A stretch of DNA of 64,000 bases from Candidatus Gastranaerophilales bacterium HUM_12. Lineage in GTDB: Bacteria > Cyanobacteriota > Vampirovibrionia > Gastranaerophilales > Gastranaerophilaceae. Position numbers and translations under genes: made by a program. Location of the stretch: the NCBI GenBank assembly GCA_002102825.1, contig DABJ01000027.1, positions 36,373 through 100,372 on the forward strand. Direction: 5' to 3'. The notes beneath the pieces were generated by a model. That model was not told the DNA's origin, did no database searches, and saw nothing but the letters and a program-made list of their open reading frames with translations. Shown piece after piece: positions 29,855-37,331 of this stretch. Positions within the stretch are counted from its first letter, which is position 1. Each line of letters begins with the position of its first letter.

Positions 29855-30706
29855 TTATTTTAAATCAAGAAATTTTCGGTTTTTGTTTGGGTAAATAAGT
29901 TGCGGATATTTATTTATTATCTTTTCTAAGTCTTCATTACTAATAGGAATTTCTTTTGCAGGTTCGTAAATAGTTTTTTTGATCCCTTTTACTCTAAAGA
30001 ATTTACCTCTTGTGTTTCTGTAATCTCGAAGCATGTTTTCGGCAAAATCACATTTTCCACTCCACGCATCAACAATGATTGATTTTGGGTGAAAATATCC
30101 TTTTTCAATTGGAACATTAGGTGGATTTATAAGACAAACTGAATGGTCTATTTTCTTTTCTTTTCCATTTACGAGATTGTACATGTGAATTCTAGACACA
30201 TTTTTAACCCCATTCAATTTAAGAACAATTTCGGAAAGCATTGCATCTTCCAGACAATTACCTATTTTTTCTTTCTCTAAGTAACTAAGCATTTCCATTG
30301 TTGGAGAATCTTTTTTAAGGTTTTCTTTTTTAAAACAGTTTTTTCTGAGTCCTATCAATTGATAAATTTTGTCATAAATATGTTTTTTTATTTTGAATTT
30401 CTTTTTATTTTCTTTAGAGAGGAATAAGTAATGGACGAAATCTTCAACTTTTTCTAACATCGTTTTGGAAGAACGACGTTTGTTAATTGTGGGTGTTTGT
30501 TCAAGTAAATCCATTACTTGTCCAAGATTGTTAGGACGGGTAGAACATAAATTATTGCTTTTCAAATAAGAAATGATACCCTCTTGATGTTTAGTTGTCG
30601 AGAAGTGTGGGAATGTTGAATTGACAATGTGAGAAACCCATTGAGCATCTTTGATTTGAGAACAACGGGAGGTAAAACTTTGACTTGTTGTGTTTCTAAG
30701 TTCCAT
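29855..30706 (-). CDS. orphan protein with transglutaminase-like/BTLCP-like Cys-His-Asp arrangement; N-terminal SQSFTS tag
   Basis: IGNCLEDAML (compare the GDCEDYA nucleophile block), IDHSVCLI and IIVDAWSG in the order and spacing of a papain/transglutaminase-like triad. Confidence 0.45.
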   Translation of the reverse strand: MELRNTTSQSFTSRCSQIKDAQWVSHIVNSTFPHFSTTKHQEGIISYLKSNNLCSTRPNNLGQVMDLLEQTPTINKRRSSKTMLEKVEDFVHYLFLSKENKKKFKIKKHIYDKIYQLIGLRKNCFKKENLKKDSPTMEMLSYLEKEKIGNCLEDAMLSEIVLKLNGVKNVSRIHMYNLVNGKEKKIDHSVCLINPPNVPIEKGYFHPKSIIVDAWSGKCDFAENMLRDYRNTRGKFFRVKGIKKTIYEPAKEIPISNEDLEKIINKYPQLIYPNKNRKFLDLK

Positions 30707-30792
30707 AGATTGATAAAGAAAGCTAAAAATAATAATTGATTGAATTTGCGACTATATTTACAAATATTAATGAAAATTTTTCAAAAAAGTTC

Positions 30793-30820
30793 TTGCAATT
30801 TTTTTTTTAGCACATATAAT
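30793..30820 (+). promoter_or_regulatory. sigma70-like promoter of tRNA-Asp
   Basis: TTGCAA at 30793-30798, 16-nt spacer, TATAAT at 30815-30820, about 20 nt before the tRNA 5' end. Confidence 0.5.
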
Positions 30821-30841
30821 AAAGAAGTAGCCAAAACATCT

Positions 30842-30919
30842 GGGAGCGTAGCTCAGTTTGGTTAGAGCGCATGCCTGTCACGCATGAGGTCGCGAGTTCG
30901 AGCCTCGTCGTTCCCGCCA
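30842..30919 (+). tRNA. tRNA-Asp (GUC), CCA encoded
   Basis: Manual cloverleaf: acceptor GGGAGCG/CGTTCCC, D arm GCTC/GAGC, anticodon stem CATGC/GCATG with loop CTGTCAC, T arm GCGAG-TTCGAGC-CTCGT, discriminator G, CCA. Confidence 0.95.
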
Positions 30920-30921
30920 TT
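30904..30921 (+). repeat. direct repeat copy 1: last 16 nt of tRNA-Asp plus 2 nt
   Basis: CTCGTCGTTCCCGCCATT; identical 18-mer at 31088-31105. Confidence 0.9.
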
Positions 30922-30927
30922 ATAAAA

Positions 30928-30949
30928 GAACCCTTTGAGGGTTCTTTTT
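30928..30949 (+). terminator. intrinsic terminator after tRNA-Asp
   Basis: GAACCCT-TTG-AGGGTTC followed by TTTTT. Confidence 0.8.
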
Positions 30950-30956
30950 GTTTTTA

Positions 30957-34624: not shown

Positions 34625-34861
34625 GTTTATAAAATTTTTATGTTACAATCTTTCAAGGATAAGGTATTGTTTATACTAACAATGATTTAAAATCTTGTTA
34701 TCAGTAAATTATTGTTGTCGAAGAAAATAAATAAAGACAATGAGACAAGAGTGGAGTAACAGGCAATAGAAGATTGAAATTAACAGGTTTGTATAATCAA
34801 ATGCAAGTATTTAATGCTATAAAACATCTAATTGGTACAATTGGGAAGTAGGGAGGTTGTT

Positions 34862-35488
34862 ATGAAAAGGATTTTAATTTTGATGTGTTTATTACTTTCT
34901 TCTGCATCAATTGTTTTTGCCGGAGAAACTTATTCTATTAAAGATTTGAAAAAGATGAATATTGATGCAAATTCCTCTATATCAAAGGAAGAATTGCTAA
35001 AGGCTCAAAAGATTATGTTGGGTGTATATGAAAAGACTTCTGATGGTGTAAAACAAGGTAAAGGCCCATTTTATGCTGAAATTTATGATAAAAACGGGAA
35101 ATTAATTGCTGCATCTTCTAATAGTGTAGTCGAAGATAATTGTTCAATTTATCATGCGGAGGTTAATACCTTGAAAAAGGCTCATTCATATTATAAGCAG
35201 TACAATTTAGCACCTAAAGATTTGACAATTTATGTTAATGCTGAACCTTGCATAATGTGTGCCGGTGCAATTATGTGGTCTGGAGTCAAAACAGTATATT
35301 TTGGTGTCCCATCTAAGAGTGTTGAAGAAATTACCGGTTTTGATGAGGGATTTAAACCGAATTGGATAAATGAATTCAAGAAAAGAGGCATAACTGTTTA
35401 TGGGAATATTGAACAACAGGCAGGAGAAAGAATTCTTCAAGATTATGTAAACAGTGGAAAAGAAATTTATAAACCAACTAGAAAGTAG
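34862..35488 (+). CDS. CDA-fold nucleoside/nucleotide (TadA/guanine deaminase-like) zinc deaminase with Sec signal peptide
   Basis: HAEVNTLKKA and PCIMCAGAIMWSG zinc motifs. N-terminal MKRILILMCLLLSSASIVFA-GE signal. AGGGAGG RBS before the ATG at 34862. Confidence 0.8.
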   Translation: MKRILILMCLLLSSASIVFAGETYSIKDLKKMNIDANSSISKEELLKAQKIMLGVYEKTSDGVKQGKGPFYAEIYDKNGKLIAASSNSVVEDNCSIYHAEVNTLKKAHSYYKQYNLAPKDLTIYVNAEPCIMCAGAIMWSGVKTVYFGVPSKSVEEITGFDEGFKPNWINEFKKRGITVYGNIEQQAGERILQDYVNSGKEIYKPTRK

Positions 35489-35495
35489 GACGATT

Positions 35496-36014
35496 ATGAT
35501 TATAAAATATAAATACTTGTTATCTGTTATTGTATGTACAATTATGTTATTTGCTTGTGGTTGCACATATAAAACAATGCCAATAGGCACATCTAACCCT
35601 TGGACTGATTGTAATGATAGTTATTCTTGTGCGGTTAAAATTGCCGGATTTAACATGCCGTTGCATCTTTCAAATTATACTGTAAGAGCAATGAAAGGAC
35701 TGGTAGAGGTTACGTATCAGTTAGATGAGCATCGTGATGTTACGGTAAGAAAAAGCCTAGAAGAAATTAACGGCGGAGATAATAGCGGGGATTATACAAA
35801 GTATCCTGAAAATTCAACACTAGTACTAGATAATGGTGTAGAAATAAATGTCCGAAAAGACGGGGATAAGATTTATGTGATGTATTTTGGTGCAGAAAGC
35901 GGATATTATTCTGCTCGTTGTGAACAAGGTATGTCAACTAAAGAGGTTGAAGATATTTATTCTGTAATTGCAGAAGTTGAGGCGGCAAAACTTCCTCCAG
36001 AAGCTTTTGAATAG
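35496..36014 (+). CDS. putative lipoprotein
   Basis: MIIKYKYLLSVIVCTIMLFACGC lipobox-like LFAC. Starts 8 nt after the deaminase stop. Confidence 0.55.
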   Translation: MIIKYKYLLSVIVCTIMLFACGCTYKTMPIGTSNPWTDCNDSYSCAVKIAGFNMPLHLSNYTVRAMKGLVEVTYQLDEHRDVTVRKSLEEINGGDNSGDYTKYPENSTLVLDNGVEINVRKDGDKIYVMYFGAESGYYSARCEQGMSTKEVEDIYSVIAEVEAAKLPPEAFE

Positions 36015-36100
36015 TTTTGTAAATATTTTTAATAATATATCAAAAATATTAATTTTCGTATTTTATACTAAGTCATAAACTTTGTAGAAGAAAGGATTTT

Positions 36101-36391
36101 ATGCAAAGGGTGAAAAAAGTTTTATTGCTAACAATCTTATCTGTGGTTTTGGCACCTATGGTGTGGGCAGATGTTGTTGTTTCTCCTCAGTGGAGTGAGT
36201 TTTGTCCTTCTGAATATATTAGTTCGAAATCTTCAAGGTTTAATTCTACGCAGAATTATTGGTATAACAGACGAGTTCAGTTTGAGGAGTCTTTGGAACA
36301 ATGTAATTCTTATAGTGGTGAACATTTGAAGTCTTGTTATTCTAAAATTCGAGCTGAAGAAATAAATAAAAATAAGTACAAAAAAATCTAA
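36101..36391 (+). CDS. small secreted hypothetical protein
   Basis: Signal peptide MQRVKKVLLLTILSVVLAPMVWA; four Cys in the mature part. Confidence 0.5.
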   Translation: MQRVKKVLLLTILSVVLAPMVWADVVVSPQWSEFCPSEYISSKSSRFNSTQNYWYNRRVQFEESLEQCNSYSGEHLKSCYSKIRAEEINKNKYKKI

Positions 36392-36417
36392 AAAATATTT
36401 CTAAACAAAGGAGATAC

Positions 36418-36771
36418 GTGATGAATTCTTCTCTAAGTATAAGTTCTCAACCGGTTTTTACAGCGAAGATATCTGTGATTGCGCAAGCTAAATTATTATC
36501 AAAAGAAGATTCAAATACTCTAAAGGCAATAGCTAAAAATATTGGAACCGATGATGATATTATTCATTTGACGGTTAAAGAATCTAAAAAACACCCGTAT
36601 ACTGCATTCTGGGCAGAACATACTGCGGATTTCCATTTGGGGCATAAAGCATATAAAACAAGAGCTTCTAAGAATGTTTCTGCGGGAAAATTTTCACCTT
36701 TTAATTATTGCAAAAGAGTTTTATCTATACTAAAAAATGCATATATAAAAATGCAAAACTCTAAAGTTTAG
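36418..36771 (+). CDS. orphan protein with SSQPVFTA N-terminal tag
   Basis: 117-aa ORF (GTG at 36418 or ATG at 36421) after an AAGGAGA RBS. Confidence 0.5.
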   Translation: MMNSSLSISSQPVFTAKISVIAQAKLLSKEDSNTLKAIAKNIGTDDDIIHLTVKESKKHPYTAFWAEHTADFHLGHKAYKTRASKNVSAGKFSPFNYCKRVLSILKNAYIKMQNSKV

Positions 36772-37331
36772 CTAATTTCATCAAAATCTGCAATTTTAAT
36801 TTCTTCAAAAGATTTATTTAAAGCTTCTTCCGGACTTAACCTCTTTTTCAATGCTCTATCTATGTGTGCGTTTGAAATATAAATTTCGTCTTTATCTGTT
36901 TTGTATGCAATATTTGTCGGACTTTTTCCGTTTCTTATTTCAGAAAAAGGAATGTCGAGTTTGTTTAAGAGTTCTTTAAATTTGTTATAAATATTAAGAC
37001 TCTTTTTGGTATTTTTAGAGCCAACAAGGATTCCTTGCAAATTATTGTCGGCTAAATTTATTTTATCCCTCAAATAAGGAATAAAAATACTAAAATTGTG
37101 GTTTGCCCCATCGTTTGGGTTTATATGCATTAGTAAGGCTTCTTTGCCATTTGTCAAAAGACATGACGTACAATCACAAATATTTCTTGTAAAAACATCT
37201 TTACCTTGCACTGTTTGCTCCAGACTCCAAGGAAAATCAGCAAAGTTTATTTTAGGGATATTGCTTGTGACTTCTGAAAATGTTTTGCTATTTACAGGTT
37301 TGATATAAGATGTAAAACTGATATCTGCCAT
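36768..37331 (-). CDS. orphan protein with CheD-like (deamidase-fold) Cys/His blocks; N-terminal ISFTS tag
   Basis: CTSCLLTNGKEALLMHINP is colinear with CheD GSCVAV...AHVMLP. The later GILVGSKN and LDIPFSEIRNGKS match the CheD IAGGA and GI.LV.ED.GG positions. Confidence 0.4.
   Translation of the reverse strand: MADISFTSYIKPVNSKTFSEVTSNIPKINFADFPWSLEQTVQGKDVFTRNICDCTSCLLTNGKEALLMHINPNDGANHNFSIFIPYLRDKINLADNNLQGILVGSKNTKKSLNIYNKFKELLNKLDIPFSEIRNGKSPTNIAYKTDKDEIYISNAHIDRALKKRLSPEEALNKSFEEIKIADFDEIS

Follow-up and report, generated by a model that had tools for sequence, protein, structure and literature searches.

What could a short sequence at the start of many otherwise unrelated proteins be for? 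The question arises from a 64,000-nt stretch of contig DABJ01000027.1 of Candidatus Gastranaerophilales bacterium HUM_12 (31% G+C; the whole stretch is called the window here). The initial annotation had listed eleven orphan proteins of the window whose first residues form a polar tract ending in a motif of the type F-[TKGR]-[GSAM]. The N-termini quoted for all eleven were found in their respective genes. Held-out tests on related loci and conservation within families confirmed a position-specific N-terminal motif on many proteins that are unrelated and, for the most part, specific to the lineage. As a short linear recognition motif, the tag closes a disordered N-terminal leader, and it occurs lineage-wide on dozens of unrelated families. 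The results below establish its existence, conservation and position dependence as well as its misfit to known signals. The initial interpretation as a targeting, export or cleavage tag was partly supported; it is reasonable, and the function remains putative.

In its refined form the tag begins with Met-x-aliphatic, the third residue being Ile, Leu or Val. It is followed by a polar, basic and acid-poor leader, about 3-55 residues long and enriched in Asn, Lys, Gln and Ser, and then by the hexamer [T/Q/N/K]-[P/V]-[S/N/T/A]-F-[T/K/G]-[G/A/S]. The N-termini of the window carriers are genuine because AAGGAG-type ribosome-binding sites stand at the right distance, 6-12 nt upstream in most cases. 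Two starts were corrected to an ATG after a good Shine-Dalgarno site (36418 to 36421, and 59051 to 59033). In an all-against-all BLAST comparison, the eleven carriers showed no pairwise similarity except low-complexity matches, and a Pfam and NCBIfam search gave no match for any of them. Neither Pfam nor NCBIfam contains a counterpart of the tag, and the literature searched neither describes the motif nor connects Melainabacteria proteins with a secretion signal.

Enrichment of the motif at protein N-termini

Relatives of the window were collected in two samples. Sample 1 comprised 80 loci (1.3 Mb) from species-representative genomes encoding relatives of the multi-pass membrane protein 57438-59033, and included the complete MEL.A1 genome. 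Sample 2 comprised 80 metagenome loci around flhB (1.06 Mb). Genes in these loci were called with a simple rule based on open reading frames and ribosome-binding sites and were then clustered into families. The sample 1 loci with an informative label were all Melainabacteria, Gastranaerophilales or Cyanobacteria, apart from a few bins that were evidently mislabelled. Contigs L011, L014/L033 and L075 carry Melainabacteria genes 51-81% identical to the window protein and are filed in public metagenome-assembled genomes as a Methanomethylophilaceae archaeon, a Bacteroidaceae bacterium and an Acinetobacter sp.; these labels probably reflect binning contamination or mislabelling.

The motif was scored with a matrix of six columns (positions -3 to +2), trained only on database homologues of two large families, that of the kinase-like protein 13143-14159 and that of the membrane protein 57438-59033. 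The threshold of 8.17 bits was the 10th percentile of the training scores. Held-out scoring covered the proteins of all non-training families, with the window excluded, and compared N-terminal segments of 49 residues with interior segments. In sample 1, 53 of 1000 N-termini matched (5.3%) against 47 of 4816 interior segments (0.98%, P=2e-16). Sample 2 gave 43 of 868 (5.0%) against 55 of 4501 (1.2%, P=5.6e-11). Composition-preserving shuffles of the sample 1 N-termini matched at 1.5%. The N-terminal enrichment was 3- to 10-fold or more at all thresholds tried, and the match density per position fell smoothly from 0.0015 over residues 1-25 to about 0.0002 in the interior. The tag is borne by about 4-5% of Gastranaerophilales proteins, or about 4% after subtraction of false positives, which corresponds to some 50 families in the samples.

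The original regular expression was enriched at window N-termini, occurring in the first 40 residues of 11 of the 54 window proteins against 4.0 in composition-preserving shuffles (P ~0.001, a post hoc value). However, it was too loose, and at the same time it missed two of its own eleven examples, NFGT in 1359-1784 and NFGQ in 18343-19020. Two annotated proteins match the expression, an XRE regulator (12791) and a member of the BaxI family (42286); with the matrix, they scored 0.4 and 2.9. The TPH sequence reported just upstream of the motif occurs in two carriers only and gained no further support.

A logo of 38 carrier families, 36 of them outside the training set, held information at positions -4 to +2 only and none downstream. 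The absence of information past +2 indicates that the carriers share no hidden domain. Paralogy among carriers was rejected on the same grounds, with no conservation past +2 and only low-complexity BLAST matches. Enumeration of exact k-mers gave SFT as the best tripeptide (5.4-fold, P=7.5e-5), but its significance was lost on correction for 2097 tests; exact k-mers are unsuited to a motif of such degeneracy.

Conservation of the motif within families

The family of 13143-14159 comprises 85 homologue clusters, down to 31% identity. Its N-termini begin with Met-[Q/K/E]-[I/V], continue with an N/Q/S/Y-rich tract of varying length and reach the motif P-x-F-x-G-Y. The Phe occupies a single alignment column in 84 of the 85 homologues, and leader length places it anywhere from residue 10 to residue 60. 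F23 of the window protein is one of 15 invariant columns in an alignment with about 38% mean identity to that protein. It stands beside the presumed catalytic residues G72, D198 and D216, also invariant, and K87 and N203, conserved at 90% or more.

The membrane protein family is larger, with 349 representatives in a library clustered at 50%, and has no sequence match in Pfam, NCBIfam or the PDB. Among 127 full-length representatives, 120 have the Phe in one column, at residue 8-58 depending on the length of the leader. F17 of the window protein is one of nine invariant columns, here at about 28% mean identity to the window protein. In a third family, that of 29855-30706, the sequence x-[S/N]-F-T-[S/A]-R is retained in 12 of 13 members down to 26% identity while the leader varies, and C151, H188 and D213 are invariant. 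Some members of a family of 470-residue orphans have Tyr in place of the motif Phe.

The logos of the two large families agree with each other. Pro is the most frequent residue at -2 (39-67%), the alternatives being Val, Gln, Thr or Ile, and position -1 holds Ser, Ala, Asn, Thr or Gln. The Phe at position 0 is followed by Lys, Thr or Gly at +1 and mostly by Gly at +2 (64-77%), otherwise by Asn or Ser. The leaders of both families are rich in Asn, Lys, Gln, Ser and Ile, with Asp and Glu together at just 2-6%.

The leader and its junction with the protein body

Leader composition was compared between 49 carrier families and 703 other families without signal peptides. Carriers had 0.51 acidic residues at positions 2-15 against 1.59 in the other families (P=9e-10), and the Ser/Thr/Asn/Gln fraction of the leaders was 0.37 against 0.24 (P=6e-15). 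Position 3 or 4 was aliphatic in 71% of carriers and 47% of the others (P=1e-3), and the first 12 residues were free of Asp and Glu in 65% and 28%, respectively (P=2e-7).

AF2 models built from family alignments predicted residues 1-19 of 13143-14159 and residues 1-9 of 29855-30706 to be disordered, with a predicted local distance difference test score (pLDDT) below 50. In both models the ordered part starts at the motif, and in 29855-30706 it is opened by F11. The motif stands at the junction of a variable leader and a conserved body in three families. However, it is not merely a structural anchor, because in some 5'-nucleotidase-like proteins a long linker separates it from the catalytic domain. 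In these members, a long Pro/Gln-rich linker runs from the motif ('LPKVSFKAA', residues 10-16) to the catalytic domain.

These data bear on the view that the motif has no function and arises from AT-rich composition, miscalled starts, hidden paralogy or a structural N-terminal anchor particular to each family. N/K/I/F/S-rich N-termini are indeed common in a genome of 31% G+C, the original expression was loose, four of the eleven listed carriers are weak, no tripeptide survived correction for multiple testing, and the Phe lies at the onset of order in the two AF2 models. Against this, the match rate at N-termini exceeded that of shuffled sequences, and held-out families were enriched 4-5-fold in two independent samples (P 6e-11 to 2e-16). 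Three unrelated families keep the Phe invariant across 26-38% identity, ribosome-binding sites support the called starts, and similarity between families is limited to 6-7 residues. The held-out tests largely refute a non-functional origin, which we regard as very improbable.

The position of the motif at the leader boundary raises a different explanation, namely that it marks a propeptide processing site. The polar leader would then be a disposable pro-sequence, and a dedicated protease would cut at the Phe-x-Gly junction, by analogy with Prp acting on L27 and phage capsid proteins or with prohead proteases, which cut one motif common to many head proteins. Such a cut could render the protein active or uncover a new N-terminus. 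In the kinase-like, Cys-His-Asp and membrane families, the motif marks the transition from a hypervariable, disordered leader to a conserved, ordered body, which would fit this view. So would the unconstrained leader length, with the Phe at residue 6 to about 60, and the small flanking residues (S/A/N/T at -1 and G/A/S at +2), which resemble those of many protease sites. One homologue of 29855-30706 (P0392) begins just past the motif. However, no candidate protease was identified beside the carriers, no neighbour recurs there, and the motif is not always at a domain junction, as the 5'-nucleotidase-like members with a long linker demonstrate. In addition, leaders of 3-5 residues would make a pro-sequence pointless. 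On balance, we consider a processing site unlikely.

Tests against established N-terminal signals

The tag was compared with established signals in 56 carrier families. The initial annotation had found no match to Sec, lipoprotein or prepilin signals; this held for the larger set, and the Tat and double-glycine signals failed as well. A Sec signal peptide, which has a hydrophobic h-region of about 7-15 residues behind a basic n-region, was rejected since the leaders are polar, and a 12-residue segment with a Kyte-Doolittle value of at least 2.0 preceded the motif in just 6 of 56 families. These six look like matrix false positives inside true signal peptides. A lipoprotein signal (lipobox L-[AS]-[GA]-C) was rejected with Cys at +1 to +3 of the Phe in 4 of 56 families and no hydrophobic region before it, and a Tat signal (S/T-R-R-x-F-L-K) with RR within six residues before the Phe in none of the 56 and no h-region. 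The double-glycine leader of C39/PCAT transporters was likewise rejected: Gly followed by Gly, Ala or Ser at +2 and +3 occurred in 10 of 56 families. Double-glycine leaders also have a conserved acidic and hydrophobic helix (LSxxELxxIxGG), whereas those of the carriers are poor in Asp, Glu and Leu.

A degenerate prepilin-peptidase (PilD) site was also considered, in which cleavage before the Phe would feed a type IV filament or a type II-like secretion system. The element x-F-T is common to the motif and the pilin site (G|FTLIE), and a pilin-like protein in locus L170 reads 'KLAFTLAEEL'. Type IV pilus genes are present in the lineage, including a PilT-like ATPase at 23235-24344 of the window, and pilus genes have been reported for it (PMC5877343). 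However, none of the 56 families had Gly at -1 or a hydrophobic 15-residue stretch after the Phe, and only three had Glu at +5. A PilD site is therefore scarcely credible.

Type III signals follow rules of another kind, known from work on Pseudomonas syringae effectors: a disordered, polar N-terminus that is acid-free over 12 residues and has an aliphatic residue or Pro at position 3 or 4. The carrier leaders display such generic features: they are polar, the modelled ones are disordered by prediction, and both an aliphatic position 3 or 4 and acid-free first 12 residues are commoner in them than in other families. These are permissive criteria and do not amount to proof.

Nature of the tagged proteins

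Most carriers are orphans of unrelated folds. The initial annotation had ascribed effector-like folds to several of them, and this was borne out in part. The best PDB sequence match of 13143-14159 was the Salmonella type III secretion system (T3SS) effector kinase SteC (E=1.6e-4, over 40 residues around the glycine loop). All top Foldseek matches of this protein were kinase-like, at low TM-scores (0.24-0.30); among them were WNK3, aminoglycoside phosphotransferases and Lpg2603, an effector kinase of Legionella. For the family of 29855-30706, the invariant Cys-His-Asp set supported the assignment, but the transglutaminase-like fold matches were weak (E >=0.024); they included LapG, the Legionella effector Ceg10, vasohibins and arylamine N-acetyltransferases. 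The neighbouring gene 31393-32238, which had been called ADP-ribosyltransferase-like, had no Pfam match at E <=0.01. Public gene calls begin this gene at an internal ATG, giving 281 rather than 341 residues.

Among ten new carriers taken from the relatives, six had no Pfam match. One, at 6869-8140 of locus L072, belongs to the ADP-ribosyltransferase exoenzyme family (PF03496, E=1.6e-14); its leader and tag, MVSVNGITSQPHFTANG, precede a single transmembrane segment. The other three may be false positives of the matrix: a helicase, a uridine kinase and a GNAT acetyltransferase. The largest carrier family, that of 57438-59033, consists of multi-pass membrane proteins, and several other carriers span the membrane once. 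The genes of the carriers are scattered (12 adjacent pairs, 11.4 expected), and no neighbour such as a chaperone or protease recurred beside them. The protein at 11773-13437 of L170 and its orthologs in L097-L116 belong to a 5'-nucleotidase / metallophosphoesterase family (PF02872, PF00149) that is normally extracytoplasmic. They have no signal peptide; a polar leader ('MINNIN...') and a Pro/Gln-rich linker are present, with the tag in some orthologs.

This repertoire could also be read without export, with the tag as an intracellular docking site. A hub protein would bind it for localisation, for complex assembly, or for degradation through an AAA+ adaptor, in which case the tag would be an N-terminal degron. 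A conserved element in a disordered tail is classic short linear motif behaviour. The tag on multi-pass and single-pass membrane proteins, its presence on enzymes that need cytoplasmic ATP or NAD (kinase-like, ADP-ribosyltransferase) and the dispersal of carrier genes like ordinary genes all point the same way. However, docking leaves the acid-poor leaders and the aliphatic residue at position 3 or 4 unexplained. Nor does it account for a normally extracytoplasmic 5'-nucleotidase-like family exchanging its signal peptide for a polar leader, and no hub candidate was identified. We regard docking as possible, though on the unlikely side.

A putative type III export tag

The reading that we favour, with a probability of roughly 35%, is that the tag is a putative Sec-independent export signal for the flagellar type III export core, the link between the two being an inference. 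One common cellular factor would read the tag and the tagged proteins would be handed, independently of Sec, to the flagellar-type type III apparatus (FlhA/FlhB/FliPQR/FliI). The disordered, acid-free leader, with its small hydrophobic residue near the N-terminus, would enter the export gate. The Phe-x-Gly element would act as a docking site and possibly as a processing site.

Most Gastranaerophilales have an incomplete flagellum, yet they keep flhA, flhB, fliI, fliPQR and fliF together with rod and hook genes (PMC3787301; PMC4040986). The full flagellar set is present in about 25% of genomes, and the retained genes have been postulated to take part in extracellular secretion (bioRxiv 10.64898/2026.04.24.720558). 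About three quarters have lost the filament. No substrates of the retained export core were described in the searched literature. The flhB gene (PF01312, E=5.5e-114) is found on contig VOFC01002229.1 (1,411,854 bp), which probably represents the same species as the window or a closely related one; for the other genes of the export core, the literature is the only source. Around flhB there is a conserved synteny with a FliA-like sigma factor, the tagged 470-residue orphan and a 5'-nucleotidase-like enzyme in which a polar leader replaces the signal peptide. The 9.5 kb upstream of flhB in L087, a divergent locus, contain four carriers. The flhB neighbourhoods are not flagellar clusters, and no flagellar rod or hook proteins were encoded in the fetched loci. 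Type III-like leader statistics and the effector-like cargo (kinase-like, ADP-ribosyltransferase, and the Cys-His-Asp protein near LapG/Ceg10) were also counted for export.

Several observations weigh against type III export. A conserved Phe motif is not expected of type III signals, for which we know of no sequence consensus, and multi-pass and single-pass membrane proteins are unusual as type III cargo. Two rules for flagellar substrates were tried and rejected. The gate-recognition motif F-x-x-x-hydrophobic requires a hydrophobic residue at F+4, which was present in 18 of 56 families (32%). Within families, the share was 29% for the membrane proteins and 17% for the kinase-like proteins. 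The early flagellar spacing rule (at least 19-30 residues) did not fit either: the Phe stands before residue 23 in 32 of 56 families (57%), as early as residue 6 and in many carriers at residues 6-19, which leaves 24 families with the Phe at residue 23 or beyond. Sigma-28-type promoter motifs showed no enrichment upstream of carriers, and the 6-mers that were enriched there stem from orthology between upstream regions within the large families and from long, AT-rich intergenic stretches. The carriers are unclustered and lack a recurrent neighbour, and a secretome of 4-5% of the proteins would, with a genome of 1.9 Mb, be very large for a system of this kind. The proximity of carriers to flhB could be conserved synteny.

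A bolder form of the type III reading is doubtful. In this form, a filament-less flagellar type III apparatus would have turned into a general exporter in gut Melainabacteria, and the tag would be its dedicated, sequence-defined signal, marking some 70-100 proteins per genome. If true, it would be the first consensus-type T3SS signal known, and the targets of the kinase-, ADP-ribosyltransferase- and protease-like effectors could be the host or microbes nearby.

Tagged genes of the window and their surroundings

Seven of the eleven listed carriers pass the matrix threshold, while the remaining four are weak. Four of the seven lie in the orphan-rich stretch at 29.8-37.3 kb. The gene 29855-30706 (minus strand, 283 aa) has its tag at 30668..30706, reading MELRNTTSQSFTS, with a 7-residue leader before SQSFTS, F11 as the motif Phe and a matrix score of 13.5. 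The gene for tRNA-Asp (30842-30919) lies directly upstream of it, and the orphan-rich stretch may be a variable island at a tRNA gene. The plus-strand gene 33920-34624 (234 aa) has an almost equal score of 13.4. Its tag, at 33920..33958, reads MNTISNNNVNFKG with F11, and AAGGA is found upstream. This family is narrow, with four clusters at 74% identity or more, and NNV[NTS]F[KG]G is retained among them.

The remaining two are adjacent. On the plus strand, 36421-36771 (116 aa) starts with the tag MNSSLSISSQPVFTA at 36421..36465 (F13, score 10.2), with AAGGAG 8 nt 5' of the ATG. On the minus strand, 36768-37331 (187 aa) starts with MADISFTS at 37308..37331, a very short leader that places the Phe at residue 6 (score 9.0).

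Other genes intersperse with these tagged orphans. The gene at 34862-35488 encodes a MafB19-like / cytidine deaminase-family protein (PF14437, E=4.8e-17) that has a Sec signal peptide; 3' of it lie a predicted lipoprotein gene (35496-36014) and then a gene for a small signal-peptide protein (36101-36391). The segment 34862-36391 looks like a secreted deaminase toxin with its immunity partners. Also in a region of orphan genes is 37912-39282, which encodes a 456-residue protein starting with MGLSSSQGRLLSITARLTSNEYESQQISNAK that has no Pfam match and is found at the same position on related contigs.

The other three carriers above the threshold are distributed over the window. The tag of the protein-kinase-like protein 13143-14159 (plus strand, 338 aa) spans 13143..13217 and reads MQVQGFSTYSNYNSQMQARTPVFRG, with F23 and a score of 12.1. 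That of 55753-56847 (minus strand, 364 aa), at 56758..56847, reads MKILPINIYSAKNIQNSQNRIYNSNPIFTS with F28 and scores 10.6; the gene has an AAGGAG ribosome-binding site, and its ortholog in locus L007 retains NPIFTS despite an indel in the leader. The highest score in the window, 16.0, belongs to the multi-pass membrane protein 57438-59033 (minus strand, 531 aa), whose tag MITDITNNTITPHRPQFTG spans 58977..59033 with F17. Its family occupies 255 loci in species-representative genomes, several per genome, and forms tandem gene pairs in divergent lineages (L087 10001-13442; L091 10001-13520; L092 6909-10295). The proteins have a weak internal repeat (hhalign probability 62%), with the motif outside the repeat match, and a conserved internal sequence '[E/Q]-F-[T/K]-G-P' near residue 362.

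Below the threshold, three candidates are weak. The sequence MDLVKNNLSINFGT at 1359..1400 (plus strand) of 1359-1784 scores 4.5. In the 672-residue protein 43649-45667 (minus strand), the leader at 45566..45667 ends in ...NKSNIYFGS (F32, score 5.7) and is polar and acid-free; a tRNA-Asn gene (43169-43240) adjoins this gene. The candidate tag of 54720-55349, MKVNNVQNTSANINFKM at 54720..54770 (plus strand), scores 2.7 with Met at +2, though the leader is typical and the ribosome-binding site good. The tag of 18343-19020, MQNFGQ at 18343..18360 (plus strand), is doubtful, with a score of 0.8. Elsewhere in the window, 6516-10094, directly 5' of a glycogen synthase gene, encodes a protein of 1192 residues with N-terminal double zinc ribbons (PF12773) and an unannotated body.

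Implications

Gastranaerophilales belong to the Melainabacteria, a sister lineage of Cyanobacteria that does not photosynthesise. They are common uncultured bacteria of the human and animal gut, and a large share of their genes is annotated as 'hypothetical'. A label shared by about 5% of proteins offers a common handle on these orphans, and whatever reads it defines an undescribed pathway. An export signal would explain why the flagellar export core is kept without a flagellum, and would provide a sequence rule for listing secreted proteins from metagenomes. A processing or docking signal would still define a new regulon-like set of clients. In each case, the motif is simple enough for direct testing.

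Relation to known systems

Short N-terminal markers on many unrelated, fast-evolving proteins of one lineage have precedents that were likewise first found by sequence recurrence. The MIX, FIX and RIX motifs mark type VI effectors, and PEXEL marks exported proteins of Plasmodium. However, MIX, FIX and RIX are larger domains tied to a type VI secretion system, of which no sign turned up here, although no systematic search was made for one. PEXEL differs in following a Sec signal and in being cut by a known protease.

The likeness to Prp substrates lies in a short N-terminal extension that ends in a Phe motif with small residues and occurs on unrelated proteins. In Firmicutes, Prp cuts such an extension from L27 and phage capsid proteins, with substrates of the form ...LQFFA|S. 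The sequence of the present tag is different, and its leaders are long, variable and of low complexity. No Prp or L27 locus was present within the fetched DNA.

Type III signals resemble the tag in their disordered, Ser/Thr/Asn/Gln-rich N-terminus without a hydrophobic core, and in a cargo of unrelated folds (kinase-, ADP-ribosyltransferase- and protease-like). The tag differs from them in its near-invariant Phe-centred hexamer, in leaders as short as 3-5 residues and in multi-pass membrane cargo, and export is putative here. Flagellar T3SSs are known to export non-flagellar proteins, such as Cia and FlaC of Campylobacter and YplA of Yersinia, and the filament-less basal bodies of Buchnera have been proposed as exporters.

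Early rod and hook subunits of the flagellum carry an N-terminal small hydrophobic signal and an F-x-x-x-hydrophobic motif that docks on FlhB-C, at least 19-30 residues apart (PMC8983047). The tag departs from this arrangement in its motif, F-[T/K/G]-G, in its shorter spacing and in its carriers, which are not flagellar proteins. The layout is common to both: one of residues 2-7 is small and hydrophobic, and a polar linker whose sequence can be exchanged leads to a motif built on Phe.

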